Under the pieces are notes generated by a model. It ran no database searches, was not told where the DNA came from, and worked only from the letters and a program-made list of their open reading frames with translations. 38,588 nucleotides of DNA, from assembly GCA_964603235.1 (NCBI GenBank), contig CAZRUU010000001.1, positions 1 to 38,588 on the forward strand. The letters are read 5' to 3'. This DNA is from an uncultured Syntrophaceae bacterium. GTDB lineage: Bacteria; Desulfobacterota; Syntrophia; Syntrophales; UBA2210. Positions 1,189 to 30,138 of this stretch are shown here, piece after piece (within the stretch, counting starts at the first letter, position 1; every line of letters starts with the position of its first letter). Made by a program: the position numbers and the translations under genes.

Positions 1189-1189
1189 A

Positions 1190-17161: not shown

Positions 17162-17193
17162 AAGGGGAAACTTTTACAAAAAAGTTTCCCCTT
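17162..17193. terminator. Bidirectional intrinsic terminator-like hairpin (perfect 14-bp stem AAGGGGAAACTTTT acaa AAAAGTTTCCCCTT)
   Basis: It starts 8 nt after the stop codon of the plus-strand PLP gene, between the convergent genes. The A/T runs at the stem ends supply U-tracts in both orientations. Confidence 0.7.
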
Positions 17194-17309: not shown

Positions 17310-18422
17310 TTACAGAAGAGCATCAACCGGTACATACTCAAGCCCAAAAGCATCGGCAACACCCTTGTAGGTTACCTTGCCTTTTACCACATTGGCGCCC
17401 TGTTTGATTGCCGGATTTTCTCTAAAAGCGCCTTTCCATCCCTTGTTTGCGATTTCCACCGCGTATGGCAAAGTGGCATTAGTAAGGGCCCGTGTCGATG
17501 TCATGGATACGGCACCCGGCATATTGGCCACGCAGTAATGAATCACTCCGTCCACGGTGAAAACAGGATCCGTGTGTGTGGTGGGTGTTGATGTCTCGAA
17601 GCAACCGCCCTGATCTATGGCGACATCCACCATGACAGAACCTTTTTTCATGGTCTTTAACATGTCCCGGGTCACAAGTTTCGGCGCCTTGGCTCCAGGA
17701 ATAAGAACTGCCCCCACCACTAAATCAGCTTCCTTTATGAGCTTGCGAATTGTAACCGGTTTTGACATGAGCAGAAAACAGTTTTTCGGCATTACATCGC
17801 TCAGATAGCGTAACCGGGGAAGACTGTTGTCTAGAAGGTAAACTTTAGCGCCAAGGCCGCATGCCATCTTTGCGGCATTGGTTCCTACGATTCCGCCTCC
17901 AATGATGAGCACGGTGCCCGGATCAACGCCCGGAACTCCGCCCAGTAGAACTCCGGAACCGCCACGTGACATTTCAAGATACCTGGCTCCTTCCTGGACT
18001 GACATGCGTCCCGCCACCTCGCTCATGGGATTAAGGAGGGGCAGAGATCCATCTTTCTCCCGTATGGTTTCATAGGCTATGTTCACAGATCCGCTCTGGA
18101 GGAGGTATCTGGTCAGTTTTTCATTCGCGGCAAGATGGAGGTACGTGAAGACAATCTGACCATCCCTGATAAATTTATATTCCGACGGTATCGGCTCCTT
18201 GACATGCATTACCATTTCTGCGCGTTCGTAGATTTCCGCGGGGGATTCCACTATCTCTGCTCCGGCATTTACGTAAACTTTATCCGTGAATCCGCTCTTT
18301 ATTCCGGCCCTTTTCCCCACGAGAACGGTATGACCGTTCTGTTTCATCACTTCGACCCCTCCAGGGGTCATCGATACCCTGTTCTCTTCGGCCTTTATTT
18401 CTTTGAGAATTCCAACAATCAT
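17310..18422 (-). CDS. ald: L-alanine dehydrogenase
   Basis: 370 aa. N-terminus [23 protein letters not shown] and NAD fold [28 protein letters not shown] are characteristic of Ald. RBS AAGGAG. Confidence 0.9.
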
Positions 18423-18475
18423 TGCATACTCCTTCAGGATGGATATGTCTAATCTATAAGAATATTATTAAAGAG

Positions 18476-18498
18476 CTTCCGGGGCGCATTTCCCGAAG
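18476..18498 (-). terminator. Weak terminator-like hairpin between phnW and ald
   Basis: The minus strand reads CTTCGGG aaatgcg CCCCGGAAG (7 bp with a 1-nt bulge), followed by the U-rich tctttaataatattctt. Confidence 0.3.
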
Positions 18499-18573
18499 GC
18501 AGTCGGTACCAGGGATCACTGAACGGCTAAAATACCATGGAGTTTGTTCCGAGTTCCCGTCAGTTAGTATCTG

Positions 18574-19695
18574 TTACCAGAACATGGATTCTTCTATTGC
18601 CTTTAAGAGTCTTTTTATATCTTCAGGGTAGATGTCGCCAATGTTTCCGATCCTGAACGTATCGAGCTTTGTCACTTTGCCCGGGTAGATAACGAAACCC
18701 TTCTCTTTCAGTTTGTCATAGAATTTCTTAAAGTTGTACTTTTCGCTTTCGGGGCTGTAGAAGGATGTAATAATCGGTGACTGGAACTCGTCGGGCAGAA
18801 GAGTTTTGAATCCAAGTTTTCTCATTCCTTCGACCAGGATCTTCTGGCTGGTGCTGTATCGCTCGTGCCTCTTTTCAATTCCTCCCTCTTCTTCCAGTTC
18901 CAGCATCGCCTGGCAAAATGCCCTTACAACGTGGGTGGGAGAGGTGTACCGCCACTTGCCTCTGTCCGCTTCCATCATCTGCCACTGGTCATAGAGATCA
19001 AGGGAGAGCGAGCGGGCGTATCCCTTAATCTTTGTCATTTCCTCTTTCCTGGCGATGATAAAACCAAAGCCCGGAACTCCCTGGATACATTTGTTTGAGC
19101 TTCCAACACAGTAGTCGATGTTCAGGTCGGAAATATCCATAGGGACTCCACCGAAACTACTTATGGTGTCGGTAAAGTATACCTTCCCGTATTTTTTTGC
19201 TATCTCGCCTATCTTATTTATGGGATTGATCATACCCGTAGTCGTTTCACAGTGTACAACGGCAACGTGAGTTATATCCCTGTCTTCCTTCAGGGTTGAT
19301 TCAAGCTTTTCCAAGTCGGGCTTTGCCAGTTCCCCGCTGTTATGAACGATGGTGTTTATCTTGAGGGTTTTAGAGATCAGGGCGATCCTGTCTCCGTAGG
19401 CGCCGTTTGCGAGAACGAGAAGCTTGCCCTCGGGAGGGATTATGGAACCGATAATCGATTCAACGGAAAAGGTGCCGCTACCCTGCATAAGAGTGATTGT
19501 GTATTCTTCAGTTTTCTTCGTGGCCAGTGCGAGGAGCTTTGCCCGCAAATCTTCCACCAAGGTCTTGTAATCATCGTCCCAGGTGCACCAGTCTCTCAGC
19601 ATAACGGCCTTTACCGTTTTACTCGTCGACAATGGTCCCGGTGTCAAAAGTAAATAGGGATTATCTGGTATGTATTTTGTATCCATTGTATCCAT
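18574..19695 (-). CDS. phnW: 2-aminoethylphosphonate:pyruvate aminotransferase (class-V PLP enzyme)
   Basis: [30 protein letters not shown] and PLP-lysine context [16 protein letters not shown] fit PhnW. I prefer the ATG at 19695 (RBS AAGGAGG 6 nt upstream) to the GTG at 19791 in the ORF track. Confidence 0.8.
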
Positions 19696-19844
19696 TGTAC
19701 GCCTCCTTGATTTGATCTTTATGCTGACACCGGTGTAAACGACCCGACCTTCACAACGGGCAGCTATTAAAACGTATGTATTACAAGCCACGTAATATCG
19801 TATGAACCCTGAAGCATATTGTGGCTGCTCTTTTATGGTATGAA

Positions 19845-19881
19845 ATCATATCTCTGTAGAAATATAAGTCAAACTAATAAT
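19845..19881 (-). promoter_or_regulatory. Candidate sigma70 promoter of phnW (-35 TTGACT, 16-nt spacer, -10 TATGAT) within the shared 22-nt module
   Basis: The minus strand reads ATTATTAGTTTGACTTATATTTctacagagaTATGAT. 19860-19881 is identical to 4066-4087. Confidence 0.55.
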
Positions 19882-19908
19882 AATCATGGCTATAATGACT
19901 CTATGTTA

Positions 19909-21156
19909 TTATGAAAATCCATAGGTCTTCTGTCTACTCTCAGGTATAAGCAAAACAGCTAAGATGCCCAGCGCCGCCAGAAAACTAAGCAGAAAAAAGA
20001 CTGATGTATATGATCCGAAGGCGTCGATGAGAATACCTGTCAGAAACATGGCGCACATGCTCCCCAGATGTCCCCCTGCCTCAAGAAAGCCGGACGCGGT
20101 TCCTGTTAGATCTGGTGAAAGTATGTCCAGTTCCAGCGCGAAGAAAAGAGTCCCTATGGTCTGGTCGAAAAAACCGATGCCTGCTATGAGCATGAGTACG
20201 ATAATTAAGTTGTCGGAAAGGGCCAGAAGGGCGGTGAATATGAGGATCATGAATAATCCCACCAGAATAACGGGTTTCCTTCTCCCTTTGAGGGTGATGT
20301 CCGACAGATAGCCACCCAGGGGTCGCGCTATGATGCCCATAAGGGGATAGATGCTCGCGCAGAGACCGGCCGAAACGACACTGAGGCCGTGGAATTCGTA
20401 GAGATACGAGGGGATCCATACGAGGCTGCAGTACGTTATATAGCTATGACAGGAGAATCCCAGGCAGGCCAACCTCGTCGGTCCGTTTGAAATGACGGCA
20501 AAGAACCTGTTTTTTCTTTGTAACGATACACCTTCTGGTCTCTCGCTGGGGTTGTACTCCCCGGTAATTATGCCGGAGCTGTCAGGGTGATCGGTTACAA
20601 GAAGACGGAAAATGACAAGGCCGGGGACCATGATAAGAGACGATACTATGAATACGATCCTCCAGCCGAATCTGTGGCCGACATACCCTGAGAGCAGATA
20701 GGCAAGAACGGTAAAAGCGGAGGTGCAGGTGCAGAATATTCCAAGGGCGCGCCCTCTTTCGGAAGCGGGAAACCAGTCGTTGAGAAGCTTGATGCTCGGG
20801 CTGAAACCACAACCCTGTCCAAGACCGTTTACGCTCTGGAGGCCAATGAGGAATCCAAGTCCTGTACCGGCGCTGAAGAGGGCATTTGCTACTAATGATA
20901 AAAAGCCGCCGGTGATGATAATCTTTCTGGAACCAAAAATATCGCTCAGATAACCCGCAGGGAGTTGCGCTATGGCATAGAAGGCAAAAAAGGTGGTGCT
21001 GATGAGACCGATCTGGGTGTGCGTGAGATGCAGATCCCTCATCATTAAGGGAATAACCGGCGCCAGGTTAAGCCTGTTCAGGTAATAACACCCGTAAACG
21101 AGCCAAAGAACAGCCAGGACCTTGTAACGGGGCTGATATTGGAGTTTTGAGAACAT
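19909..21156 (-). CDS. MFS transporter, organophosphate:phosphate antiporter-like (GlpT/UhpT/PgtP family)
   Basis: 415 aa. YYLNRLNLAPVIP, NGLGQGCGFSPSIKLLNDWFPASERG and TGTASGFLEAGGHLG parallel the GlpT motifs [38 protein letters not shown] and AGTAAGFTGLFGYLG (from memory). Confidence 0.75.
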   Translation of the reverse strand: MFSKLQYQPRYKVLAVLWLVYGCYYLNRLNLAPVIPLMMRDLHLTHTQIGLISTTFFAFYAIAQLPAGYLSDIFGSRKIIITGGFLSLVANALFSAGTGLGFLIGLQSVNGLGQGCGFSPSIKLLNDWFPASERGRALGIFCTCTSAFTVLAYLLSGYVGHRFGWRIVFIVSSLIMVPGLVIFRLLVTDHPDSSGIITGEYNPSERPEGVSLQRKNRFFAVISNGPTRLACLGFSCHSYITYCSLVWIPSYLYEFHGLSVVSAGLCASIYPLMGIIARPLGGYLSDITLKGRRKPVILVGLFMILIFTALLALSDNLIIVLMLIAGIGFFDQTIGTLFFALELDILSPDLTGTASGFLEAGGHLGSMCAMFLTGILIDAFGSYTSVFFLLSFLAALGILAVLLIPESRQKTYGFS

Positions 21157-21270
21157 TTATATTTTTGTACAAATAAAAACCGGATATGTAAAGCCGAAAA
21201 TCCCATTCAACCCATCTGCCGACAGAACCAGTTGATTATTATTACTCCGGTAATAATATATGTCAAGGTT

Positions 21271-21358
21271 GTCTTTCCGGCGAAAGCCGGAATCCAGAAT
21301 GAATTTGACTGGATGCCGGATCAAGCCCGCCATGACGATTGCTGTTTTTAATCGCCGG
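21271..21358. repeat. REP-like composite element (CTTTCCGGCGAAAGCCGGAATCCAG ... CTGGATGCCGGATCAAGCCCGCCATGAC)
   Basis: Two hairpin modules of the same family as 7949-8085. The 82-aa ORF at 21157-21405 is their translation artefact (VMAGLIRHP...LDSGFRRKD). Confidence 0.65.
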
Positions 21359-21429
21359 AGCAATAATGATCCAGGTGGCAACGGGAACCGATTCCGGCAT
21401 CTCATAAAGTACGTAACTCTTCGGCATGG

Positions 21430-22086
21430 TTAGTTATTTGAGTCCAAGAGGCGAAGCAATTCGTTGGAGGCATCCAGCACTGTCTCATATATCCCATGCG
21501 CTCCGGAAAAATCACCGTCCATTGTCAGCCTGTTGGGGATTACTATGCATCTGATCCCCGCCGCGATTGCCGCTCTGAGGCCGCGTTCCGAATCCTCTAC
21601 GATTATGCAACGCTCTTTTTTGAAACCGTTTTTTACGATTGCGGTGAGAAAGGGATCGGGGTCCGGTTTGGAGTGTTCGTAATCCTCACGGGTCAGCACA
21701 AAATCAAAATACGGCAGGAGTCCAGTGGCGGCATGAATAATGTCAAAGTGTTCCTTCCGGGAGCTCGTTACCACACCCATAGACACCCTGCCCTGAAGTA
21801 AGCGGAGCGTATGCCCGACACCGTCTATCGGTCGAACACCGCTCCGCAGCAGGTTGCTGTAGAGTCGATTACGTTTCTGACGGAGACGATAAATCTTCTC
21901 CGCTGTTACACCCCTTTCGGCGGCAAGATCGAAGCAACTACGACCCTGCTTCAGGGAAATCATCTTGAACAGCTTCTCGGTCAGTTCGATCCCCGCCCCG
22001 GAGAGGGCCTCTTTCGTTGACTCATAGTATAGCTTTTCCGTGTCGACAAGGACACCGTCATTGTCCCACAAGATCGCTTCCAGCAT
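21430..22086 (-). CDS. HAD-superfamily subfamily IA phosphatase (not a PhnX-type phosphonatase)
   Basis: 218 aa. Motif I DNDGVLVDTE, motif II VVTSS, motif III KPDPDPF, motif IV EDSERG. The nucleophile motif is the generic DxDG, not the DxAGT of phosphonoacetaldehyde hydrolase. Confidence 0.8.
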   Translation of the reverse strand: MLEAILWDNDGVLVDTEKLYYESTKEALSGAGIELTEKLFKMISLKQGRSCFDLAAERGVTAEKIYRLRQKRNRLYSNLLRSGVRPIDGVGHTLRLLQGRVSMGVVTSSRKEHFDIIHAATGLLPYFDFVLTREDYEHSKPDPDPFLTAIVKNGFKKERCIIVEDSERGLRAAIAAGIRCIVIPNRLTMDGDFSGAHGIYETVLDASNELLRLLDSNN

Positions 22087-22104
22087 GTGTATCCGTTGTT
22101 TTCC

Positions 22105-23496
22105 CTAATCCCTGCCCCACTTCTTCAGATACGGGCCTAACAGTTCCTCCTCAGTGGGAACATGATAGTTCTCGATCGGCTGAGCGAGATTAGTATAATT
22201 CAGGAATTGCTTCCAGTTGACGTTCTGGCTGGTGATGTTGCCGGCCCATGTGCCGCACCCGAGGGTATCGGTAAATGCATTACCGCTGAACCAGGCGCCG
22301 CTGTTTGCCGCGCCGTGAGGCATATTGCAACAGACTCTTCCCACGTTTGCCTTGATGGCGAGTTCCATCATCCTGTCCTGACGAGTGGAGTGGATTGCAA
22401 TTGAATGTCCTTCGCCACAGAATTTGTGCATCTTTTTCGCTCGTTCAACCATCTCGCTGAAATCCGACCATTTCCATACGGTGAGCACGAGAGATATTTT
22501 TTCTCCGGAGAATCTGTCTTCAGGACCGATCTTTTCTCCCATGACCATGAGGCAGCGTGTGCCTTCGGGTATATCTATGCCAGCCATTTTTGCAGGATAT
22601 TCAACAGGCCTTGCCACACAGTCTCGGTTCAAAACTGTTCCCTCCGGCCACATCCATTTCCGAAGTCTCTCACGTTCTTCCGTGGTGCACAAGTAAGCGC
22701 CCTCTGCTTTCAGGCAGCCCATCATCTCGTCGAAGACACTTTCTTCAATGGCTACAGCGTTTTCCGAGGAACATGACGCAGAGTTATTGGCACATTTAGA
22801 TTTCATAATCTTGTTGGCGGCAGCTTTAAAATCAGCTGTAGAATCCACCATGGATATGACATTACCCGCACCGACCGTCTGTGCTGGTTTTCCGGCTTTA
22901 TAAACTACCTTGACCAGAGCCTCTCCACCGGTCGCAACAGCATAATCACAACTTGCCATGAGTTGCTGCGTCTTCTCATTAGTGGGCTGCTTGACGCACT
23001 GCATCAGGTCTTCAGGAGCACCAATTTTCTTCAGGGCCTTTCTGCCAAGTTCTACAGTCATGTATGAGCTTTTAGGCGTTCTCGGATGGGGAGACACGAT
23101 CATTGCGTTTCTTGTTTTTAATATACTAAGACCAAGTGCAGTAATAGTTGACTCGGGGTTTGTACAGGGCACCACATTAGCAATAACACCGATCGGCTTG
23201 GCCAGAATCTTGAGATTCTTTTCCGGTATATCTTCAACAACACCGCACGTCTTAACACCCTTTTGATCCCAGAGAGTGCCGAGACATTTATCCTTGATCT
23301 TGCCTAACTTGTCCTCGTAGCGGCCGATGCCGGATTCATCAACGGAAAGGTGTGCAAGAACCTTTCTGTTCTCCTCTTTCGACCACTCCCAGGCTGCTGC
23401 CTGGCACATCTCGTCGACTTTTTCCTGCGGCCAGAATTCGACGATTTCAAAGGCCTTCCGCGCCCTCTTGTACATTTCTTGAATGTTGTCTTCCAT
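22105..23496 (-). CDS. CoA-acylating aldehyde dehydrogenase (AdhE N-domain/EutE/PduP/SauS family)
   Basis: 463 aa. Catalytic Cys context KCANNSASCSSENAVAI. The C-terminal TLGCGTWAGNITSQNVNWKQFLNYT parallels AdhE LGCGSWGGNSISENVGPKHLIN. RBS GAGGAGG. Confidence 0.85.
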   Translation of the reverse strand: MEDNIQEMYKRARKAFEIVEFWPQEKVDEMCQAAAWEWSKEENRKVLAHLSVDESGIGRYEDKLGKIKDKCLGTLWDQKGVKTCGVVEDIPEKNLKILAKPIGVIANVVPCTNPESTITALGLSILKTRNAMIVSPHPRTPKSSYMTVELGRKALKKIGAPEDLMQCVKQPTNEKTQQLMASCDYAVATGGEALVKVVYKAGKPAQTVGAGNVISMVDSTADFKAAANKIMKSKCANNSASCSSENAVAIEESVFDEMMGCLKAEGAYLCTTEERERLRKWMWPEGTVLNRDCVARPVEYPAKMAGIDIPEGTRCLMVMGEKIGPEDRFSGEKISLVLTVWKWSDFSEMVERAKKMHKFCGEGHSIAIHSTRQDRMMELAIKANVGRVCCNMPHGAANSGAWFSGNAFTDTLGCGTWAGNITSQNVNWKQFLNYTNLAQPIENYHVPTEEELLGPYLKKWGRD

Positions 23497-23510
23497 GGTA
23501 TTTCTTACCT

Positions 23511-23562
23511 CCTCAAAAAAAGATTAAAGATACGGCCGACGGCTCACGCCTTCAGCCGTATC
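23511..23562 (-). terminator. Terminator/attenuator-like hairpin plus U-tract between the citrate-synthase-fold genes and the aldehyde dehydrogenase gene
   Basis: The minus strand reads GATACGGC tgaaggcgtgagccgtcg GCCGTATC (8-bp outer stem), followed by TTTAATCTTTTTTT and then the RBS of the aldehyde dehydrogenase gene. Confidence 0.4.
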
Positions 23563-23634
23563 GAGTACGTGACATTGCTACAATGCTGTATGGAATCATC
23601 CCCGTATGGAGGAATAACCCATTTTTGTGTTCAA

Positions 23635-24657
23635 TTACTTTTTCCCCTGCTTCTTTAGAGAATCACGGGGGTCAACAACATCTTCAATGATGCGCCAGCC
23701 CGTTCCGTACATCTTCTGCTTTTCTTCGAAACCTTTTTTCCATTCTTCGGGTGTCTTATACTCAACAGCAGAAGCAACTTTCTTCCTTTCCTCGAGGGTG
23801 GGTATCGACCGATCTTCCGGTCCATCATAGTCCTCTTTCGGGGTAAGGTCTTCACCGAATCTCCGTTGGGGTTCCCTCTCTACTTCCTCACACCAGTGAG
23901 CACCAGCCCCGAACGACCTGGTAATCGCCACAATGACCCATGTGGCGTCAGAGGAAAATCCCAGGTCCATCATGATAGCCCCAGTGGCTCCAAGCATATC
24001 GAGGTCAACGGGTTTGTCGCTAAGCTTCTGGGCTGCCGCCACTACTTCCTTCATGAAGGCAATGTATTTGCCGGAAACTCCCAGTTTTTCTGCCCGGGCA
24101 ACAGCCCTCTTGGCGGCCGGATCCTTCAGCATCAAATCGGAGACACCGAGGTGAACCGCGTCAAGATGTTCCTTTGCAAGCAATTCAGCAGCTTCTGTGG
24201 TTGTTTTTCCCTCGTTCTCCACCAGGGCGAGATACGTATCGAGCATCTTCCCGAAGGCGTCAAAAGCGCCATATGCGTGGCCAAAGGCGAGTATGGAAGC
24301 CCCGCATGCCTGGGTGAGGAGAGTGGTACTGCTTCCCGCGATCCGTGCAATTGCCGCGGGTGAAGACAGACCGTCATCAAGAGAAAGAACCATGAGGTAG
24401 TTCAGCATCTGAGTTTCTTCTATAAGGGGAATCCGTGCCTGGAAGTCAACGAAGATAATATCGGGAAGCCCGTATCCCGATTCAACCAGTTCGGTGGTGT
24501 CATAGCCCCTTGTCACAATACGGTGAACGTTTTTGTAGGCAACCTCGGAAACCCACTGGAAAGGATCCCGCTTCTTGTCCTGAGGAACAGTGCCCCGCTC
24601 CCTCTTTGAATAATCAAAATTTAACCTTGGATCATCTAAGTTACCTATAACACCCAT
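23635..24657 (-). CDS. Citrate-synthase-fold protein, citryl-CoA-lyase-like, subunit A (divergent active site)
   Basis: About 340 aa. VTRGYDTTELVESGYGLPDIIFVDFQARIP, LSLDDGLSSPAAIARIAGSS...AFGHAYGA and VDLDMLGATGAIMMDLGF follow the citryl-CoA lyase/citrate synthase small-form layout. I prefer the ATG at 24657 (RBS AAGGAGGG) to the GTG at 24666. The start overlaps the upstream paralog by 13 nt. Confidence 0.7.
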   Translation of the reverse strand: MGVIGNLDDPRLNFDYSKRERGTVPQDKKRDPFQWVSEVAYKNVHRIVTRGYDTTELVESGYGLPDIIFVDFQARIPLIEETQMLNYLMVLSLDDGLSSPAAIARIAGSSTTLLTQACGASILAFGHAYGAFDAFGKMLDTYLALVENEGKTTTEAAELLAKEHLDAVHLGVSDLMLKDPAAKRAVARAEKLGVSGKYIAFMKEVVAAAQKLSDKPVDLDMLGATGAIMMDLGFSSDATWVIVAITRSFGAGAHWCEEVEREPQRRFGEDLTPKEDYDGPEDRSIPTLEERKKVASAVEYKTPEEWKKGFEEKQKMYGTGWRIIEDVVDPRDSLKKQGKK

Positions 24658-25541
24658 TTTTTCCACCCTCCTTCCTCTTTCTGTTTCTTAGCGTATTCCT
24701 GTCTCTCTGCCTGGCTTGGGACTTCTCTGTCCTCGGGGCCCACGTATTTTATCATGGACAAATCGAGCATCTGTACCATAGGTTCCCTTTTCGACGCGGC
24801 CCAGGCGCGGCCTTTTTTCATCTGATAGAGGGCATGAGCTGCACAGCTGTATCCCCTGGTGACGCATCCGATACACCAGGCGGCATTGGGTGCGAACCCT
24901 ATCTCGGCAAGGGCGGTATTCCCCGCTCCGATCATATTGACAGCTACATAGGATTTACCCTCTCTTTTCCTCCGCGCATTGAAGTGCTTCTCTATCGACC
25001 TTTGAAGTTCCAGGTACACACCGTTTATACCCAGCTGTTCGTGCTTGATATGCGTCGGCTCGGCCCGGGGGTCCCCATCGAGATGCTGTGGCTGTCCCAT
25101 GCCCATAACGGCGAAACCGGCATCCATGTGCTCATCAACGAGAATCTTGCCCATTTCCTCCAGGGATATGCCCTCCACACGGGCACGTTCGATGTACTTA
25201 TGCATCATGTATCCGTGGGCAGCTCCCGGTCCATGGGCACTGCCAAAGGTCGAGACGGCGGCCGCGGCTGCGGCCGTAATACTGGGTCTTCCACTGATTA
25301 CCCCGAAGGCTGATGCCGCAGAGGGCGACATGGAATGTTCCAGGAATTCTCCCATTTCATATTCGAGCATTTTTTCCTCTTCCTCGGTGGGAAGCCTCTG
25401 CTGAAACAGGACAAACATAGCGTCGCAAAAGGTATATCCGGCCTCTGCCAGATCGCTTACGTTATAGCCACGTAAGACGGTCTTTTCTTCTGTCTTGTAG
25501 GAAATTGATGTCTTCCTGCGGAAGAATGGTTCTCTATTCAT
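24645..25541 (-). CDS. Citrate-synthase-fold protein, citryl-CoA-lyase-like, subunit B (divergent active site)
   Basis: 298 aa. TSISYKTEEKTVLRGYNVSDLAEAGYTFCDAMFVLFQQRLP, LEHSMSPSAASAFGVISGRPSITAAAAAAVSTFGSAHGPGA, VMGMGQPQHLDGDPRA and AVNMIGAGNTALAEIGF are collinear with citryl-CoA lyase motifs. RBS GGAGGAG. Confidence 0.7.
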   Translation of the reverse strand: MNREPFFRRKTSISYKTEEKTVLRGYNVSDLAEAGYTFCDAMFVLFQQRLPTEEEEKMLEYEMGEFLEHSMSPSAASAFGVISGRPSITAAAAAAVSTFGSAHGPGAAHGYMMHKYIERARVEGISLEEMGKILVDEHMDAGFAVMGMGQPQHLDGDPRAEPTHIKHEQLGINGVYLELQRSIEKHFNARRKREGKSYVAVNMIGAGNTALAEIGFAPNAAWCIGCVTRGYSCAAHALYQMKKGRAWAASKREPMVQMLDLSMIKYVGPEDREVPSQAERQEYAKKQKEEGGWKKWVL

Positions 25542-25724
25542 ATCTACTCCTCCTTCTATGGTTTTTTTCTTTTCTCAAGCATCAGAGGCAAACAGACCTC
25601 TGTACTTCTGATTTTAACTGTCTGTAATATATATATTTAAGCACGTATATGCTCCCATACCCTGAACCGTTCTTGCCGGTCCGGACACGATGATGGTAAG
25701 TTAAAGAAGCCTCATATATAAATC

Positions 25725-25752
25725 AAGTCAATAATAATCATGATATTCATTA
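25725..25752 (-). promoter_or_regulatory. Candidate promoter region of the citrate-synthase-fold/aldehyde dehydrogenase operon (ATTATTATTGACTTGATTTATAT)
   Basis: The minus strand carries TTGACT (25736-25741) preceded by ATGATTATTA, as in the other modules. The -10 is not obvious. It implies a leader of about 160 nt. Confidence 0.35.
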
Positions 25753-25767
25753 CTGTTTGTTATGATC

Positions 25768-26640
25768 TCATTGGCTTACCCCTATGAAAATTACTCCCAG
25801 CGCAATGATGACAGAACCCGTCATCTTCTGCATGACATGCTGTTCTTTGAGCCATACAAGACCGTAAATCGTAGACAATACGATACTCACTTCTCGGACT
25901 GCGACGACGTAACTCACTTTGCTTATACGAAACGCAAAGAGCACCATCATATAAGTCAGGAGCACAACAACTCCCAGGGCAAGTATATTGTTTCTATTAC
26001 AGCGCCATTCCTTTTTCAGTGCCTCTCTTTTTTTTGTCAACACGAAGGGCGTCAACAGCACCACGACAATCAGCAGCATGATATATATATACAACGGCGG
26101 CTCCACAAAACCCACGCCTACCTTATCGACGAGTGAATAGCCTGCAATCGTAAGGCCCGTCATGATCGCCCAGGCTGACGCGCTATCCTTCACTGCGTGA
26201 AAAGGTTCTACGAAAGAATTGAATGCAAAGGATCTCAGGTGAATCACGTATATCCCTAACACAATCAGCGCGATACCAAGGGCCCCCAGCGGATAAATTT
26301 TTTCGTGCAGAAACAATACGGCCAGCAGCGGCACCAAAAGCGGTCCCGCGCCCCTGGAAATAGGATATACCAGCGAGAGATCGCCACGCTCGTAGGCACC
26401 ACTCATAAAAGTGAAATATAAAAGATGCAGCAGTCCCGTTGCAATGATACACAGCCATCCTTCCATTGCAATGTCAGCGCGAACCCAATAATAGAAAAAC
26501 ATTGGTGAATAAAAGACAAGCGACACAAGCAAGAAAGACCAGATGTAGGTAAGTTTATCGAGACTTTTTTTCAGAAAGAAATTCCACCCGGAATGCAAAA
26601 AAGCCGCCATTATCACTATCAAAAGAGCAACGTCACTCAC
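25768..26640 (-). CDS. EamA/DMT-family transporter (10-TM drug/metabolite exporter type)
   Basis: 290-aa hydrophobic ORF with two EamA-like halves. The ORF track start is a GTG, so the start is uncertain. Confidence 0.75.
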   Translation of the reverse strand: MSDVALLIVIMAAFLHSGWNFFLKKSLDKLTYIWSFLLVSLVFYSPMFFYYWVRADIAMEGWLCIIATGLLHLLYFTFMSGAYERGDLSLVYPISRGAGPLLVPLLAVLFLHEKIYPLGALGIALIVLGIYVIHLRSFAFNSFVEPFHAVKDSASAWAIMTGLTIAGYSLVDKVGVGFVEPPLYIYIMLLIVVVLLTPFVLTKKREALKKEWRCNRNNILALGVVVLLTYMMVLFAFRISKVSYVVAVREVSIVLSTIYGLVWLKEQHVMQKMTGSVIIALGVIFIGVSQ

Positions 26641-26725
26641 CTTAAAATCCCTGCACTTCCGAGCGGTTTTATCTGCACTGAATCAAGAATCCCTTCGTGG
26701 TACACCATGAGACACACTCTGCTTT

Positions 26726-27820
26726 TCACATAATGACGGCGACTCTTATCGCTTCGCCCGATTCCGCAATTCTCAACCCTTCGTTGATATCGTCCAGACT
26801 TACCCTGTGCGTGACAATTTCACTGAAGGGAAAATCCTTATGTCGCGCCTCGAGGAACTCGAGTCCCGCTTTTAAATGTTTTGCATCATAATTATGAATG
26901 CCTCTGAGAGTAAGTCTCCTGAAAACGAGGTCTCCGGCATCATAGGAAAAATCGGCACCATTGAAAACACACCCTACTTCAACATACCGTCCTCCGATCC
27001 GAAGACATTTGAGGCCGAGACCGATGAGACCCGGTACACCCGCCACTTCCATGGCGCAATCGACTCCATGATCGTCTGTAAGACTTTTAATCGCATCGAC
27101 GACTTCATCTTCTCTCATATTCCGTACATTTATCGTATCAGTAGCACCGAACCGTTTTATAAAATCCAACCGGTGCTCCAATATATCGGTAACAATAATT
27201 TTTCTGCATCCGTAATGCGATGCCAGCGCGGCGGCATAAAATCCAAGCGCTCCAGCTCCCTGGATTAGTACGTTCTCAAAGGGTTTGACTTCGCCCGCCT
27301 CCCATCCAGCCACCACGGTTGCAAGGGCGCAGTTTGCCGGCGCCACTTCTTCGTCCGTGAGGTTTTCCGGAATCTTGAAGACGCAGGTGCCGGGTGTAAT
27401 ATAACAGTATTCGGCAAAACCGCCTTTGAAATGTGGAGAATCCGCACAACTGTCGTGACCGTACTTTTTCAGGTTTCGGCATTTCATGGGCAGGCCTTTA
27501 TCACGGCAATAATAACATTTTCCGCAGTTGTCCATAATCGTCCACGTGATCCGGTCACCGATCTGTAGCGGCTTGTCCGCGGTGTCATGCGTCACCCCCT
27601 TGCCGAATTCTACAATCGTTCCGACTATTTCATGGCCGAGAATAATAGGAACAGGCGCGGGCCTGTGGCCCAGCCATGAATGAACGTCGGAGCCGCAGAT
27701 GGTGCAGCAGGTTATCTTAACAAGGATACATCCCTTTTCTACCTCAGGTAAGGGATATTCTATGAATTCAAGATCCTTTTTCTGGGCCGTCATCACAGCG
27801 GCTCTTGCCATCTTGGTCAT
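26726..27820 (-). CDS. Zn-dependent medium-chain alcohol dehydrogenase
   Basis: 364 aa. Catalytic Zn ligands in CTICGSDVHSW...GHEIVG. Structural Zn CGKCYYCRDKGLPMKC. Rossmann LIQGAGALGFYAAALA. Confidence 0.85.
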   Translation of the reverse strand: MTKMARAAVMTAQKKDLEFIEYPLPEVEKGCILVKITCCTICGSDVHSWLGHRPAPVPIILGHEIVGTIVEFGKGVTHDTADKPLQIGDRITWTIMDNCGKCYYCRDKGLPMKCRNLKKYGHDSCADSPHFKGGFAEYCYITPGTCVFKIPENLTDEEVAPANCALATVVAGWEAGEVKPFENVLIQGAGALGFYAAALASHYGCRKIIVTDILEHRLDFIKRFGATDTINVRNMREDEVVDAIKSLTDDHGVDCAMEVAGVPGLIGLGLKCLRIGGRYVEVGCVFNGADFSYDAGDLVFRRLTLRGIHNYDAKHLKAGLEFLEARHKDFPFSEIVTHRVSLDDINEGLRIAESGEAIRVAVIM

Positions 27821-27963: not shown

Positions 27964-29280
27964 TCAATCGAACAGAAGACCGGGAAGCCAGAGCGCAATC
28001 TGCGGAAAGAAATAAATCAAAGCCACGCCCACGACTTGCAGAGCCATGAACGGCATCATTCCCTTATAGATATCCATGAGTGACCACTCCGGCATAATTC
28101 CCTTGATATAGTAGGCCGATAAAGCCACCGGAGGGGAGAGCCAGCATGTCTGCAGCACGACGGCCAGCAGAATGCAAAACCATAACATATTGATATCCAT
28201 CCCCATGAGAACCGGAATAAAGATAGGTATAATGATCACCACGATGGGAACCCACTCCAGGGGCCAGCCCAGGATAAAACAGACTATCAGGATGCCGGCC
28301 AGAAAAACCCAGTTGGGCAAATTCCAGGAAAGGAGAGTGTTGGCGATGAAGGCCGGCGTTCCCATCGAGGAAAAAACCACTCCCATGAATGTGGAAGCCG
28401 CGAGAAGAACCATCACCATGCTCGTCGTTTCGGCAGTGCGGAAGACGGCTTCCTTCACGAGCTTTAAGTTCAGTCTCCCGTTCAGCCATGTTACTATCAA
28501 GGCCCCAAGGCATCCGAGGGCCGCCCCTTCTGTGGGTGTGGCAATTCCTGATATAATGCTCCCCAGTGTCGCCAGGATGAGGACTGTCGGGGGCAGAAGT
28601 CCCAGAAAAAACTCACGAGCCTTGTAACTTGCGGCTACGTCGAGTTCCTCATCGGACAGAGGCGGACCCAGCTCCGGGTTGATCATGACCCTGATCATCG
28701 TGTATACGACGTACATGCTCGCGAGCATGATCCCTGGCAGGATCGCTGCGGAAAACAGCCGGGCCACGGAAACCTGCATCACCGGTCCCATGACCACTAG
28801 CATAATGCTGGGCGGTATCAGGATCCCCAGCGTTCCGCCGGCGCAAATACTTCCGGCGCTGAGCGAGGGGTTGTAATTGGCCTTGTTCATGACGGGAGCG
28901 GCCATCACTCCGATGATGGTGACGGCGGCGCCCACAATCCCCGTTGCCGCCGCGAACAAAGTTGCCGAAAAGATGGTCCCTATGTACAATGAGCCCTTGA
29001 GCCGGCCGGAAATGAGAAGAAGAGATCTGAAGAGACGTTCCATCAGTCCCGCCTTCTCGAGTATATAGCCCATAAAGGTAAAAAGCGCCACAGCCGCGAG
29101 AACCGTATCTGTCATCGTGTCGAACCAGGTAAGAGTCATAAGGTAGAACACCTTAGTGCCTAACCCGATAAAACCGAATGCCATGCCGAGTGCGATCAGC
29201 GTGAAAGAAATGGGGAATCCCACACAGATAAAGACGAATAGAGCCACCAAAAGTATTAAACCGTATATTTCCAAACTCAT
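27964..29280 (-). CDS. TRAP transporter large permease (DctM family)
   Basis: 438-aa polytopic ORF of typical DctM size and composition, downstream of the DctQ-like and DctP-like genes. Confidence 0.9.
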   Translation of the reverse strand: MSLEIYGLILLVALFVFICVGFPISFTLIALGMAFGFIGLGTKVFYLMTLTWFDTMTDTVLAAVALFTFMGYILEKAGLMERLFRSLLLISGRLKGSLYIGTIFSATLFAAATGIVGAAVTIIGVMAAPVMNKANYNPSLSAGSICAGGTLGILIPPSIMLVVMGPVMQVSVARLFSAAILPGIMLASMYVVYTMIRVMINPELGPPLSDEELDVAASYKAREFFLGLLPPTVLILATLGSIISGIATPTEGAALGCLGALIVTWLNGRLNLKLVKEAVFRTAETTSMVMVLLAASTFMGVVFSSMGTPAFIANTLLSWNLPNWVFLAGILIVCFILGWPLEWVPIVVIIIPIFIPVLMGMDINMLWFCILLAVVLQTCWLSPPVALSAYYIKGIMPEWSLMDIYKGMMPFMALQVVGVALIYFFPQIALWLPGLLFD

Positions 29281-29385
29281 TTATTCCTCCTACTACATGT
29301 CGTTTCCATGCATTCAAAAAGTTCCGCCGTTCCCTGAATCAACAGAAGAGTCAAGGGCAATGCTGTACCAGGGTGGATAACGGAT

Positions 29386-29928
29386 TCATGTAATCTCAGT
29401 GGGTTCCTCTTCCCGGTGGCGAGTATCCTCCCCCGTCCGTAAAAACTTTATCGATTTGAGAAGTTCCGAGATCCCCTGGAGAAACAGCAGGGTGCCACCT
29501 AAGGGAATTGTCGATTTGTACCAGTATGCCGGGGGCCTCCACGTCGTCATCAGCTCTTCCCTCAAGGCCCAGGAACCGGCAGCATACTCCATGCTCAGCC
29601 AGACGAACATCGCTATCCCGGGTAGAAAGAGGAAGACATAGCAAAACACGTCAACCCAGCACTGCGTCCGTGGTTTCCAATTTTGATAAAGAAAATCAGT
29701 CCGGATATGTTTCCCCATGTAGAGAGTCATGGCTGCAGCAAGCCAATAATGAGTCCCGTAGCACATGGTAGATATATCAATAGCCCATAACGTTGGGCGG
29801 TACGTATAACGGATAAAGACCTCCCAGACCAGCGCGCCCGCCATCGGGAGGATAAGCCAAGCAGCGGTTTTCCCTGTCCATATGCTGATCTGATCGATCA
29901 CTTTGGTGATCCGATCCATATTTTTCAT
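29386..29928 (-). CDS. TRAP transporter small permease (DctQ family)
   Basis: About 180 aa with four predicted TM segments. I prefer the ATG at 29928 (GGAG 9 nt upstream) to the GTG at 29943. Confidence 0.8.
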   Translation of the reverse strand: MKNMDRITKVIDQISIWTGKTAAWLILPMAGALVWEVFIRYTYRPTLWAIDISTMCYGTHYWLAAAMTLYMGKHIRTDFLYQNWKPRTQCWVDVFCYVFLFLPGIAMFVWLSMEYAAGSWALREELMTTWRPPAYWYKSTIPLGGTLLFLQGISELLKSIKFLRTGEDTRHREEEPTEIT

Positions 29929-30038
29929 AGCTTCAGTCTCCACAATCTCGCGATGGCCCAGCCCTGAGCCATCGCTCCTTGTTGAAATGGTAGTTTTTCT
30001 AACGCTCTCTCGGCATCTTCACCCACAATATCTTACCC

Positions 30039-30076
30039 GGCCAACCTTTCCCGACAATATCCGGGAAGGGTTGGCC
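30039..30076 (-). promoter_or_regulatory. Strong intercistronic stem-loop between the TRAP receptor and small-permease genes
   Basis: GGCCAACCTTTCCCG acaatatc CGGGAAGGGTTGGCC pairs 14 of 15 positions. No U-tract follows, so it resembles an mRNA-stability or differential-expression hairpin downstream of a binding-protein gene. Confidence 0.55.
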
Positions 30077-30138
30077 CAAGCAAGATGTTTGTGGCGATCA
30101 GACCCGCCATGCGACGCATTCGCCGCTTTTATAAGCGC

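Follow-up and report, generated by a model that had tools for sequence, protein, structure and literature searches.

A phosphonate-utilisation island with a conserved citrate-synthase-fold protein pair as a candidate carbon-phosphorus bond-cleaving enzyme

In the reviews and primary papers available up to September 2026, phosphonoacetaldehyde is handed on to PhnX or to PhnY-PhnA only, and phosphonoacetyl-CoA was not found as a catabolic intermediate in the literature searched. The SauS aldehyde dehydrogenase acts on the sulfonate analogue of phosphonoacetaldehyde. Two further enzymes of phosphonate metabolism, PbfA (PMC8154272) and PbfG (PMC13576164), have also been described. Here we analyse a contig from an uncultured Desulfobacterota bacterium, on which window-wide gene assignment identifies the whole 38.6-kb stretch of DNA (the window) as a phosphonate-utilisation island with the following features.

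88..3938, minus strand: PhnS2/PhnU2/PhnT2-like ABC transporter for aminoethylphosphonate (best matches TIGR03261, TIGR03262 and TIGR03265, each under its own cutoff)
5705..7069, minus strand: PbfA, second paralog (NF049939, 647 bits)
15802..17154, plus strand: PbfA, first copy, product phosphonoacetaldehyde (NF049939, 702 bits, cutoff 525)
17162..17193, no strand: terminator-like hairpin with a stem of 14 bp, in the gap where ald and pbfA converge (the overall number of terminator-like sites is no higher than chance)
17310..18422, minus strand: alanine dehydrogenase (TIGR00518, 499 bits, cutoff 392)
18574..19791, minus strand: PhnW, 2-aminoethylphosphonate:pyruvate transaminase (TIGR02326, 576 bits, cutoff 401)
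19909..21156, minus strand: GlpT/PgtP-like MFS organophosphate:phosphate antiporter (PF07690, 267 bits; TIGR00881, 162 bits)
21430..22086, minus strand: HAD-IA hydrolase, beta-phosphoglucomutase-like (PF13419)
22105..23496, minus strand: ALDHa, CoA-acylating aldehyde dehydrogenase, SauS/SucD-like (NCBIfam SauS)
23635..24666/24657, minus strand: CSB, paralogous citrate-synthase-fold protein of 343/340 aa (PF00285, 39 bits)
24645..25541, minus strand: CSA, citrate-synthase-fold protein of 298 aa (PF00285, 59 bits)
25768..26640, minus strand: EamA-family membrane transporter, phn_DUF6-like (PF00892)
26726..27820, minus strand: Zn-dependent MDR alcohol dehydrogenase, PbfG-like (Pfam ADH_N and ADH_zinc_N)
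27964..32435, minus strand: TRAP transporter DctM, DctQ and DctP with a PhnD-like phosphonate-binding protein (TIGR01098, 237 bits, cutoff 112)
33141..35848, minus strand: two-component system, a PAS/HAMP histidine kinase and a NarL/MctR-type response regulator

The nine-gene row from alanine dehydrogenase to the alcohol dehydrogenase, all on the minus strand, lies where the initial annotation had placed it. The locus extends beyond that annotation and its tie to phosphonates is plainer, with two copies of PbfA, additional transporters and a two-component regulator. A TAXI-TRAP system also lies within the window. The TRAP and PhnD-like block recurs in related loci L007, L008 and L017, and the upstream position of the two-component system is shared by L007, L008, L010 and L019. 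The EamA transporter, present in 21 of 80 related loci, scores 147 bits against TIGR03340 (phosphonate utilization associated putative membrane protein), short of the cutoff of 288.

Phosphonoacetaldehyde is the predicted product of three enzyme types encoded here: PhnW and both PbfA copies score above curated cutoffs, and the PbfG-like dehydrogenase falls just below its own. According to the curated family models, PhnW would convert 2-aminoethylphosphonate to phosphonoacetaldehyde, with the resulting alanine recycled by alanine dehydrogenase, which would regenerate pyruvate and release ammonium. PhnW is 62% identical to a Vibrio PhnW whose gene adjoins phnX. The two PbfA lyases (52% identical to each other) would form phosphonoacetaldehyde from the hydroxy-amino compound, again following the family models. 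The best NCBIfam match of the PbfG-like dehydrogenase, found in 23 of the 80 loci, is TIGR03366 (phosphonate catabolism associated alcohol dehydrogenase; 308 bits, just under the cutoff of 328), the second-best being threonine dehydrogenase; the enzyme probably converts 2-hydroxyethylphosphonate to phosphonoacetaldehyde. This gene content is best explained by a catabolic island for the use of 2-aminoethylphosphonate, (R)-1-hydroxy-2-aminoethylphosphonate and 2-hydroxyethylphosphonate by an anaerobe of the Desulfobacterota type. The earlier reading of the locus as aminophosphonate-catabolic holds and widens to hydroxyphosphonates, with routes that converge on phosphonoacetaldehyde and no known C-P cleaving enzyme to follow them.

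That no recognised C-P or C-S cleaving continuation is encoded in the window, as previously proposed, was borne out by both tblastn and family assignment. Searches of the window with Vibrio PhnX, a phosphonatase-like hydrolase and bona fide PhnA gave no match (best E = 0.75), and none of the window ORFs of at least 150 aa fell into a further family known to cleave C-P or C-S bonds; all were assigned elsewhere, the scan covering all but a few shadow ORFs opposite assigned genes. Within the stretches fetched for the 80 related loci, PhnX was likewise not found.

ALDHa scores best against SauS (464 bits, cutoff 600), followed by AdhE (355) and EutE (300), and its closest structure is the succinyl-CoA reductase CkSucD (8cei). 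In CkSucD the distal carboxylate is bound by a Lys and a Ser equivalent to Lys70 and Ser243 of ALDHa, whereas AdhE-type enzymes, and four acetaldehyde-specific structures, carry Ala at both. Lys70 and Ser243 are present in 61 of 61 orthologs and His364 in 60 of 61, and Cys242 is invariant or nearly so. Retention of this pair, suited to an acyl substrate with an anionic tail, favours phosphonoacetaldehyde over acetaldehyde as the substrate, in support of the earlier suggestion that an acylating dehydrogenase acts on phosphonoacetaldehyde.

The nearest solved structure to CSA is the citryl-CoA lyase 6hxp (E = 6e-18), which is also the top Foldseek match (TM 0.60/0.69) of its AF2 model (pLDDT 72). 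CSA is 73-96% identical across phyla, with H69, H103, R159 and R229 invariant; the equivalents of citrate synthase His274, His238, Arg329 and Arg401 are kept in all 81 sequences. Q150 stands in place of His320 and I/V204 in place of Asp375, and the Arg324-type contact with CoA is not kept. Compared with citrate synthase, CSA retains the enolate-stabilising His and the oxaloacetate-site residues but lacks two catalytic residues, the Asp and the second His. CSB, 32% identical to CSA, has lost the catalytic triad entirely (Tyr132 for His274, a variable residue for His320 and Leu225 for Asp375). The CSB reading frame begins before the CSA stop codon is passed; the overlap measures 13 nt in all homologous loci for which called-gene coordinates were returned. 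CSA is the probable catalytic subunit, and CSB is best explained as a catalytically degenerate partner. This residue pattern therefore speaks against an ordinary citryl-CoA lyase. As judged from the conserved positions, the pair is predicted to retain exactly the elements for stabilising a thioester enolate beside an anion pocket, and the loss of the catalytic Asp from both proteins would fit an enolate formed by phosphoryl loss, not proton loss.

The CSA/CSB pair and a SauS/SucD-like acylating dehydrogenase occur in at least 242 species-level genomes. We fetched and examined 80 loci, all from uncultured MAGs of about nine phyla, of which 80 carry CSA, 80 CSB and 64 ALDHa. Because this block recurs in other genomes, the gene order is no chance juxtaposition. 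Among the 44 well-flanked loci, ALDHa is present in 40, at least one phosphonate marker in 31, a phosphonoacetaldehyde-forming enzyme in 29 and PhnX in none. The co-localisation that the initial annotation had proposed to look for was found: homologs of the pair lie with the acylating dehydrogenase and with phnW, pbfA, pbfG-like, phnD, phnS2 and phosphate-transporter genes. L016, L025, L030 and L041 have PiT and DUF47 phosphate-transport genes separating CSB from ALDHa, and GlpT-like genes adjoin the module in about ten other loci. The alternative that the module serves taurine or sulfoacetaldehyde finds no support, sulfonate genes occurring in none of the loci. ALDHa is missing within 10 kb of CSA/CSB in five well-flanked loci, and L061 lacks it although PhnW, PbfA and the PbfG-like gene are there.

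These neighbourhoods also contain HAD and PhnA-like hydrolases, which are rival candidates for the C-P step. A HAD hydrolase adjoins or follows the module in 31 of the 44 well-flanked loci, and the commoner type (42 of 80 loci) has the motif D-F-G-Q-T without Asp+2, like phosphonatase and dehalogenases. Bona fide PhnA is present in five of the 80 loci and a PhnA-like clade in eight (13 in all), often in the same operon. The window HAD is of a different type, found in 12 of 80 loci: its motif, WDNDGV, confirms the DxDG reported earlier, it reaches only 27.9 bits with the phosphonatase model, whose cutoff is 220, and it is best explained as an accessory phosphohydrolase. A separate difficulty arises for CSA itself. 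Proteins 77-80% identical to it, with all invariant residues kept, are fused to a Fom1-type cytidylyltransferase and are found in surface-polymer clusters alongside CSB, an HD hydrolase and an NTP-transferase; one such fusion (L045) lies inside a PEP-mutase biosynthetic cluster with a true PEP mutase. A pure C-P hydrolase role would leave this setting unexplained, a C-P-destroying enzyme being hard to place there.

Weighing this evidence, we assign a probability of about 0.4 to a route in which phosphonoacetaldehyde is oxidised to phosphonoacetyl-CoA and the C-P bond is then broken by CSA/CSB, the cleavage by the citrate-synthase-fold pair being inferred. ALDHa would convert phosphonoacetaldehyde, NAD(P)+ and CoA to phosphonoacetyl-CoA, which would be held in the CSA active site of a CSA/CSB heterodimer, with CSB as degenerate structural partner. 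The cationic pocket of CSA (His238-, Arg329- and Arg401-type residues) would hold the phosphonate and its His274-type histidine would stabilise the acetyl-CoA enolate as leaving group; Asp375 would be dispensable because the acyl group need lose no proton. Breakage of the C-P bond would yield orthophosphate and acetyl-CoA, or the enolate might be captured by a bound 2-oxo acid. Phosphate would exit through the GlpT-like antiporter here and PiT in other loci, and the HAD hydrolase would be accessory.

The argument that such a route is attractive for conserving the thioester is weak, given that PhnX and an ordinary acetaldehyde dehydrogenase have the same yield. The proposed chemistry has a precedent: to our knowledge, in every hydrolytic C-P enzyme (PhnX, PhnA and PalA) the group that leaves is a beta-carbonyl enol(ate) or an enamine. 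If the proposed route is correct, the widely conserved, uncharacterised trio of ALDHa and CSA/CSB would represent a new way of breaking the C-P bond.

All nine genes that the initial annotation had named in its aminophosphonate-type locus were found on the minus strand between positions 27820 and 17310, within an island that extends beyond them. They are listed below, together with two further entries from the window.

Genes of the phosphonate island and its surroundings, with bit scores and cutoffs of curated families
27820-26726, minus strand: Zn-dependent alcohol dehydrogenase of the MDR family; highest-scoring curated model TIGR03366 ("phosphonate catabolism associated alcohol dehydrogenase"), 308 bits against a cutoff of 328
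26640-25768, minus strand: EamA transporter, TIGR03340-like
25541-24645, minus strand: CSA, citrate-synthase fold, 298 aa
24666-23635, minus strand: CSB, citrate-synthase fold, 340-343 aa; start overlaps the CSA stop
23496-22105, minus strand: ALDHa, CoA-acylating aldehyde dehydrogenase; best family SauS, 464 bits (cutoff 600); AdhE 355, EutE 300
22086-21430, minus strand: HAD hydrolase, motif DxDG
21156-19909, minus strand: GlpT/PgtP-like MFS transporter
19791-18574, minus strand: PhnW, 576 bits, cutoff 401
18422-17310, minus strand: alanine dehydrogenase
7069-5705, minus strand: second PbfA paralog, 647 bits
88-3938: PhnS2T2U2-like ABC transporter

The phosphonate reading of the locus put forward in that annotation is borne out at equivalog level by PhnW, which passes the cutoffs of both TIGR02326 (576 bits, cutoff 401) and NF010006 (559 bits, cutoff 296), and by two paralogs of the (R)-HAEP ammonia-lyase PbfA above the NF049939 cutoff of 525 (702 and 647 bits). 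The MDR dehydrogenase falls just under the TIGR03366 cutoff and its gene context fits PbfG, a 2-hydroxyethylphosphonate dehydrogenase of the Zn-MDR type with substrate residues Arg56, His124 and Asn298. Phosphonoacetaldehyde is the product of PbfA (PMC8154272) and of PbfG-type dehydrogenases (PMC13576164). Given that PhnW and PbfA pass their equivalog cutoffs, the upstream half of the pathway belongs with the known hydrolytic clusters for phosphonate catabolism. Five transport systems are encoded in the window: besides the MFS antiporter and EamA, these are the PhnS2T2U2-like ABC transporter, a TAXI-TRAP system and a DctPQM TRAP system that comes with a PhnD-like binding protein. Genes for regulation (an RpiR protein and a two-component system) and for an M20 deacylase are also present.

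Several further features of the window were recorded. A remnant of a third PbfA (8448-8269, minus strand), comprising 60 C-terminal residues with 82% identity to residues 390-449 of the PbfA encoded at 15802-17154, sits inside a gene-poor, low-GC stretch of 1.4 kb (7070-8484) without any long ORF, and the two together suggest a past duplication or rearrangement of the island. The second pbfA (5705-7069, minus strand) adjoins a gene for a saccharopine-dehydrogenase-like NAD(P) enzyme (4239-5435, minus strand) with no NCBIfam match, homologs of which occur in the related loci L009, L033 and L080, in L033 beside pbfA and phnS2. This gene is not PbfF, the known HAEP racemase, because PbfF belongs to PF02826, and its product could be an ancillary enzyme analogous to PbfF. 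An 82-codon ORF without family match (21157-21405, minus strand) lies in frame with the MFS transporter gene, separated from it by a single stop codon, and the transporter appears full length. An Rfam scan of the window returned no matches, and a promoter and terminator scan gave counts not above those of shuffled controls, the only notable site being a hairpin after ald.

Relatives of CSA were sought in one genome per GTDB species and found in at least 242 genomes, of which the best 80 loci were analysed. All 80 come from metagenome-assembled genomes, assigned to Desulfobacterales, Syntrophales, Anaerolineales and other Chloroflexota, Planctomycetota, Opitutales, Spirochaetota, Gemmatimonadota, Acidiferrobacterales and other taxa. 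The CSA and CSB genes are adjacent in 80/80 of these loci, with an overlap of 13 nt in every locus for which called-gene coordinates were returned, and ALDHa, the third member of what we call the module, is present in 64/80, most absences being contig ends. In a well-flanked set of 44 loci (4 kb or more upstream, 6 kb or more downstream), ALDHa is found in 40, a HAD hydrolase in 31 (~70%), at least one phosphonate marker in 31 and a phosphonoacetaldehyde-forming enzyme in 29. Typically the genes run CSA-CSB-(PhnW/AepZ-type transaminase)-ALDHa-HAD, between genes for PhnD or PhnS2 ABC, TRAP or GlpT transporters. The co-localisation of the citrate-synthase-fold pair with phosphonate and acylating dehydrogenase genes, which the initial annotation had proposed as a check, came out positive. 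Five well-flanked loci lack ALDHa, among them L024 and L061, the latter with PhnW, PbfA and a PbfG-like gene. Sequence identity to CSA is unusually high across phyla (73-96%); it reaches 87% for CSB and 90-91% for ALDHa in the nearest relatives, L007 and L008, and elsewhere amounts to 59-72% and 62-73%, respectively.

The related loci differ in the genes that accompany the module. In L016, L025, L030 and L041 (e.g. L030 11911-13050; L016 13169-13792), phosphate-transport genes of the PiT (PHO4) and DUF47 (PhoU_div) families separate CSB from ALDHa, an arrangement consistent with phosphate release by the module. Tandem homologs of methylamine methyltransferases, MtmB-like (PF05369) or MttB-like (PF06253), lie between pbfA or phnW and CSA in L031, L055, L056 and L057 (e.g. 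L057 7154-8527) and in L075 and L078 (e.g. L078 15320-16756), and are candidates for the anaerobic demethylation of N-methylated aminoethylphosphonates, as an oxygen-free counterpart of PbfC and PbfD. In four Opitutales loci, L046, L047, L083 and L085 (e.g. L047 6512-7630), the module is accompanied by genes for a CehA/McbA-type metallohydrolase (PHP-like), for an RpiR regulator and for a GlpT-like transporter. L085 has a PbfG-like alcohol dehydrogenase and PhnA, but PhnW, PbfA and PbfG-like genes were not found in the other three, which hints at a different, perhaps esterified, phosphonate substrate.

Searches for PhnX and PhnA covered the window and the fetched related loci. Both tblastn and ORF assignment agree with the earlier statement that the window holds no known C-P or C-S cleaving enzyme: PhnX (Vibrio PhnX query), phosphonatase-like hydrolases and bona fide PhnA gave no tblastn match in the window, where every ORF of at least 150 aa was otherwise assigned, apart from a few unscanned opposite-strand shadow ORFs overlapping assigned genes. 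A protein was taken to be PhnX if it scored above the TIGR01422 cutoff and had both motif I D-x-A-G-T and the Schiff-base lysine of the cap domain; the window HAD scores 27.9 bits (cutoff 220) and carries D-N-D-G-V, i.e. the DxDG motif already noted in place of the DxAGT of PhnX. PhnY was likewise not found in the window locus, ALDHa scoring 25 bits against TIGR03250 (cutoff 636). PhnX is present in 0/44 of the well-flanked loci and in 0 of the best 80, in which tblastn with Vibrio PhnX recovered only PhnX-like (TIGR03351) genes, in 4/80. These encode a phosphonatase-like HAD (169 bits, cutoff 219) in L024, L041, L057 and L053 (e.g. L024 6877-7605), and in the first three the gene is directly beside that of the PbfG-like dehydrogenase. 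The sulfonate alternative of the initial annotation, with taurine or sulfoacetaldehyde as substrate, was abandoned in view of the equivalog-level PhnW, the PhnD- and PhnS2-type binding proteins and the lack of sulfonate genes in any locus; SauT/SauCD, Xsc, SarD and IslAB were not recognised in the window or among the recurrent gene clusters of the best 80 loci.

ALDHa aligned over its full length with CkSucD (8cei, 268 bits) and AdhE (256 bits), and has the Cys and the His-Thr/Ser dyad of CoA-acylating dehydrogenases (AdhE-N/EutE/PduP/SucD), with Cys242 and Ser365 invariant and His364 present in 60/61 orthologs. SauS is its best-scoring family, though at 464 bits ALDHa remains under the NF047625 equivalog cutoff of 600. 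Lys70 and Ser243 are found in 61/61 orthologs, and their equivalents in CkSucD bind the distal carboxylate of the acyl group (PMC10249356). Because these two residues are kept, and both positions are Ala in the AdhE/acetaldehyde dehydrogenase structures 13he, 8uhw, 3my7 and 5j78, the sequence argues for an anionic aldehyde, not acetaldehyde, as the probable substrate of ALDHa.

The same residues bear on the suggestion that CSA/CSB could be a CoA-independent analogue of phosphonatase, converting phosphonoacetaldehyde to acetaldehyde and phosphate, with ALDHa taking acetaldehyde on to acetyl-CoA. We consider this quite improbable. The well-flanked loci without ALDHa that pair CSA/CSB with phosphonoacetaldehyde-forming genes speak for it, and polarisation of a carbonyl by a His274-type residue could in principle work on an aldehyde; yet the SucD-type anion-binding pair is invariant in ALDHa, SauS outscores the acetaldehyde dehydrogenase families, the citrate-synthase fold is known only with CoA thioesters, and linkage to ALDHa in 40/44 loci is tighter than a generic detoxifying enzyme would need.

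CSA and CSB, which share 32% identity, both match the citrate synthase family PF00285 (59 and 39 bits, cutoff 27), and their nearest relative by sequence is the Hydrogenobacter citryl-CoA lyase 6hxp (phmmer E = 6e-18 for CSA and 4e-14 for CSB). An AF2 model of CSA built with 20 close orthologs was unusable (pLDDT 47); addition of CSB homologs gave a model of moderate quality (pLDDT 72), for which the top Foldseek match was again 6hxp (TM 0.60/0.69), followed by citrate synthase and ACLY entries. Active-site residues were mapped by motif alignment to citryl-CoA lyase and two citrate synthases.

Equivalents of active-site residues in CSA and CSB (pig citrate synthase numbering)
His238: CSA H69, kept in 81/81; CSB Asp98
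His274: CSA H103, kept in 81/81; CSB Tyr132
His320: CSA Q150 (Gln in 81/81); CSB position 177, variable
Arg329: CSA R159, kept in 81/81; CSB Ala184
Asp375: CSA Ile/Val204; CSB Leu225
Arg401: CSA R229, kept in 81/81; CSB R250, kept

The catalytic triad His274/His320/Asp375 is thereby reduced to H103 in CSA and absent from CSB, and the oxaloacetate-binding residues His238, Arg329 and Arg401 are all present in CSA, with only the Arg401 equivalent in CSB. The best NCBIfam citryl-CoA lyase/citrate synthase model, NF004869, scores 109 bits with CSA and 101 bits with CSB (cutoff 212), and all other curated models of these enzymes also remain below their cutoffs. Since the curated models all fall short and catalytic residues are missing, assignment of CSA/CSB as an ordinary citryl-CoA lyase was rejected. 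Judged from the alignment, CSA retains the residue that stabilises a thioester enol(ate) and the neighbouring cationic pocket, and has lost the proton-abstracting base.

These results also weigh on the most ordinary account of the locus, which holds that the pair and the dehydrogenase serve general carbon metabolism (as a citryl-CoA lyase-like enzyme and as a succinate-/malonate-semialdehyde or acetaldehyde dehydrogenase) and just happen to lie beside phosphonate genes, with a canonical PhnX or PhnY-PhnA elsewhere in the genome. The search for PhnX and PhnA was confined to the fetched loci, and 13/44 well-flanked loci carry no scored phosphonate marker, both of which favour this account. Most of those 13 still have GlpT, EamA, PiT or HAD, however, co-localisation is far above chance over about nine phyla, and a phnW or AepZ-type transaminase gene often stands between CSB and ALDHa; together with the absent citryl-CoA lyase residues and the NCBIfam scores, this renders it very improbable.

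The reading that we consider most likely, with a probability of roughly 0.4, assigns consecutive steps to the members of the module. ALDHa would convert phosphonoacetaldehyde to phosphonoacetyl-CoA, which CSA/CSB would hold with its thioester carbonyl on H103 and its phosphonate in the pocket formed by H69, R159 and R229. Cleavage of the C-P bond, with the acetyl-CoA enolate as leaving group, would then yield phosphate and acetyl-CoA, unless the enolate were trapped by a bound 2-oxo acid. Tentatively, CSA/CSB would thus represent an unrecognised C-P-cleaving class, a heteromeric citrate-synthase-fold enzyme in which thioester-enolate stabilisation expels phosphate from phosphonoacetyl-CoA, and would form with ALDHa, as a dedicated acylating dehydrogenase, a third, CoA-dependent route that starts at phosphonoacetaldehyde. 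The proposed mechanism would explain why the catalytic Asp is dispensable in CSA/CSB, and it fits the embedded phosphate transporters and the organophosphate:phosphate antiporter. We place the chance that the module harbours a categorically new C-P-cleaving enzyme somewhat short of even. In the interpretation offered by the initial annotation, the phosphonate branch and the predicted co-localisation have therefore held and the sulfonate branch has not; C-P cleavage by the citrate-synthase-fold pair is what we infer, against serious rivals.

One such rival arises from the hydrolases encoded next to the module. The commoner HAD type of the related loci (HAD2, motif D-F-G-Q-T) was found by tblastn in 42/80 of the best loci and is devoid of the Asp+2 general acid, as are phosphonatase and dehalogenases. 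Bona fide PhnA occurs in 5 of the best 80 loci, four of which also encode a non-acylating aldehyde dehydrogenase close by, and PhnA or a PhnA-like protein often shares an operon with the module. The PhnA-like proteins form a distant clade in eight loci (L010, L015, L021, L023, L028, L030, L033 and L036; e.g. L033 9070-10080), whose members are 57-83% identical to the L033 representative and 27-31% identical to bona fide PhnA (TIGR02335 215 bits, cutoff 408), and in several loci, such as L010 and L033, the gene lies directly 3' of the HAD genes after ALDHa. In L017, L019 and L078 (e.g. L017 14282-14824) the gene after HAD2 encodes a NUDIX hydrolase, as does the one after the PhnA-like gene in L015; this hydrolase might act on CoA derivatives or nucleotide-linked phosphonates.

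It is accordingly conceivable that ALDHa makes phosphonoacetyl-CoA and that breakage of the C-P bond falls to the HAD, by way of an aspartyl-phosphate as in PhnX, or to a PhnA or PhnA-like enzyme of the alkaline-phosphatase fold, leaving CSA/CSB another thioester step: formation of an enol-phosphate isomer, hydrolysis to phosphonoacetate, or a condensation. The frequency of HAD among well-flanked loci, the phosphonatase-like lack of the general acid in HAD2, the 13 loci with PhnA or PhnA-like genes, often straight after HAD, and a biosynthetic variant in which CSA/CSB also precedes a phosphohydrolase (an HD-domain protein) all point this way. Nevertheless, CSA/CSB is present throughout, while the hydrolases are of three unrelated types and missing from ~30% of the well-flanked loci; in the window the DxDG HAD stands alone, a PhnA-like gene being absent; hydrolysis to phosphonoacetate would waste the thioester and duplicate PhnY; and HAD enzymes are not known to bind acyl-CoA. 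We therefore regard a division of labour of this kind as rather unlikely.

In this biosynthetic-looking variant, the N-terminus of CSA is joined to a cytidylyltransferase domain of the Fom1 type (L045 9521-11901, with 1969-13189; L091 10001-11284; L092 8259-12004; L093; L094). This domain shares 57-71% identity with domains that frequently occur joined to PEP mutase and that JGI annotates as 2-hydroxyethylphosphonate (HEP) cytidylyltransferase, and the fused CSA is 77-80% identical to catabolic CSA, with all invariant residues kept. CSB, a 193-aa HD protein (hydrolase) and an NTP-transferase follow, and CDP-alcohol phosphotransferases and B12-radical-SAM enzymes are encoded nearby. Locus L045 encodes a true PEP mutase, with the EDKxxxxxNS motif, as well as an AepZ-type transaminase; its CobD-like decarboxylase lies beside an NTP-transferase, a pairing that resembles a split FrbH. 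Phosphonopyruvate decarboxylase and ALDHa were not found in this locus, nor were aconitase/isocitrate-dehydrogenase homologs nearby. An L045 phosphodiesterase considered as a PhnA candidate was dismissed at 23% identity. In L091, the surface-polysaccharide cluster bearing the fused CSA includes a gene for an NAD-dependent epimerase/dehydratase (1679-4003) split by an intein (Intein_splicing and LAGLIDADG domains).

In the PEP-mutase setting of L045 it is difficult to see a role for an enzyme that destroys C-P bonds, and this supports the alternatives in which CSA/CSB forms or rearranges bonds instead of cleaving C-P by hydrolysis. Formation of a C-P bond from acetyl-CoA, as the reverse reaction in this variant, was rejected on thermodynamic grounds, by our own estimate from the PEP mutase equilibrium. 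CSA/CSB might instead be a condensing or lyase enzyme that joins an acyl-CoA enolate to phosphonopyruvate or phosphonoacetaldehyde, in the manner of Pms and the FrbC-type synthases, or catalyses the reverse cleavage; it would then serve biosynthetic and catabolic clusters alike, with C-P cleavage occurring later or elsewhere. Clustering of so similar a pair with PEP mutase, without phosphonopyruvate decarboxylase, and its fusion there to a HEP-type cytidylyltransferase domain favour a condensation, the invariant oxaloacetate-site residues could bind phosphonopyruvate as an oxaloacetate analogue, and citrate-synthase-like chemistry on phosphonopyruvate has precedent (PMC8942020). We still deem it unlikely: both subunits are missing His320 and the Asp375 base needed for acetyl-CoA enolisation, catabolic loci contain neither a maker of phosphonopyruvate nor a processor of a C4/C5 phosphonate product and would be left without any C-P cleavage, and L045 is without the neighbouring aconitase/isocitrate-dehydrogenase homologs.

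The described ways of breaking C-P bonds are C-P lyase, the oxidative PhnY*/PhnZ pair and the hydrolytic enzymes PhnX, PhnA and PalA (PMC13576164; PMC10574752). In the literature to September 2026, the fate of phosphonoacetaldehyde is given only as PhnX or PhnY-PhnA, and our searches found neither phosphonoacetyl-CoA as a catabolic intermediate nor an enzyme of the citrate-synthase fold that takes part in degrading phosphonates. In those searches phosphonoacetyl-CoA was mentioned solely as an unrealised prediction in flavophos biosynthesis. If the proposed C-P cleavage by CSA/CSB holds, it would introduce phosphonoacetyl-CoA as a new intermediate, probably a new C-P-cleaving enzyme family, and a new catalytic use of the citrate-synthase fold. 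The module occurs in hundreds of uncultured anaerobes (Desulfobacterota, Planctomycetota, Verrucomicrobiota, Chloroflexota, Spirochaetota and others), so that a CoA-dependent route would be widespread in anoxic sediments, and recruited in cytidylyltransferase-fused form to PEP-mutase clusters. It would explain the use of phosphonates by strict anaerobes as carbon, nitrogen and energy source, beyond phosphorus, and the marker genes by which phosphonate cycling is surveyed in sediments and anoxic waters would have to change. Should the mechanism prove to be another, the three genes of the module would still make a well-defined target for tests.

With PhnX, PhnA and PhnY absent, ALDHa under the SauS cutoff and the catalytic features of citryl-CoA lyase lacking, the downstream half belongs to none of the routes described so far. 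The PhnW-PhnX (phosphonatase) pathway for 2-aminoethylphosphonate, with the ancillary enzymes PbfA and PbfG, has an identical upstream half, in which PhnW, PbfA and the PbfG-like dehydrogenase lead to phosphonoacetaldehyde, clustered phosphonate transporters and regulators, and alanine dehydrogenase to recycle the amino acceptor; it differs in that PhnX is missing from the window and the best 80 loci, the DxDG HAD reaching 28 bits (cutoff 220), and in that the downstream half proposed here is CoA-dependent. PhnY and PhnA convert phosphonoacetaldehyde to phosphonoacetate and then to acetate and phosphate. As in that route, oxidation of phosphonoacetaldehyde would precede C-P cleavage, with the enolate of an acetyl derivative as leaving group, and five loci combine bona fide PhnA with the module; unlike in that route, the dehydrogenase is of the acylating Cys-His type (AdhE/EutE/SucD/SauS) rather than PhnY, its product would be a thioester, and the window has no PhnA.

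SauS, the acylating sulfoacetaldehyde dehydrogenase and best-scoring curated family for ALDHa, shares its thiohemiacetal and thioester chemistry and acts on the sulfonate isostere of phosphonoacetaldehyde, but the score of ALDHa is below 600 and no locus has sulfoacetate, taurine, Xsc or IslAB genes. In C. necator sulfoacetate degradation, SauS works reductively. The same direction, towards the aldehyde, is described for characterised sulfoacetate degradation (PMC10413351).

Citryl-CoA lyase (Ccl, 6hxp), the CCL module of ATP-citrate lyase and citrate synthase have the same fold as CSA/CSB, the equivalents of His274, His238, Arg329 and Arg401 kept in CSA and, probably, the same dimeric architecture with active sites at the interface. 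CSA/CSB departs from Ccl and citrate synthase in being a putative heteromer of two paralogs instead of a homodimer, in the loss of the Asp375 and His320 equivalents from CSA and of all three catalytic residues from CSB, and in scores of ~100 bits against curated cutoffs of 193-409, and from Ccl in its context of phosphonate metabolism in place of the reductive TCA cycle. The phosphinomethylmalate and phosphonomethylmalate synthases Pms, FrbC and Pfs2 perform citrate-synthase-type chemistry on a phosphonate analogue of oxaloacetate, and their clusters, like L045, have PEP mutase without phosphonopyruvate decarboxylase. They require a base to deprotonate acetyl-CoA, which CSA/CSB lacks, are not known from catabolic clusters and, in the case of FrbC and Pfs2, adopt the homocitrate-synthase fold, unlike CSA/CSB.

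PalA, the phosphonopyruvate hydrolase, and PEP mutase resemble the proposed reaction in a dissociative C-P cleavage from which a stabilised beta-carbonyl enolate departs, and differ in their unrelated isocitrate-lyase/PEP-mutase barrel, their dependence on Mg2+ and their use of a free 2-oxo acid rather than a thioester. PhnX, PhnA and PalA all use a beta-carbonyl enol(ate) or enamine as leaving group, and the mechanism put forward for CSA/CSB would apply this chemical logic to a thioester, in another fold.
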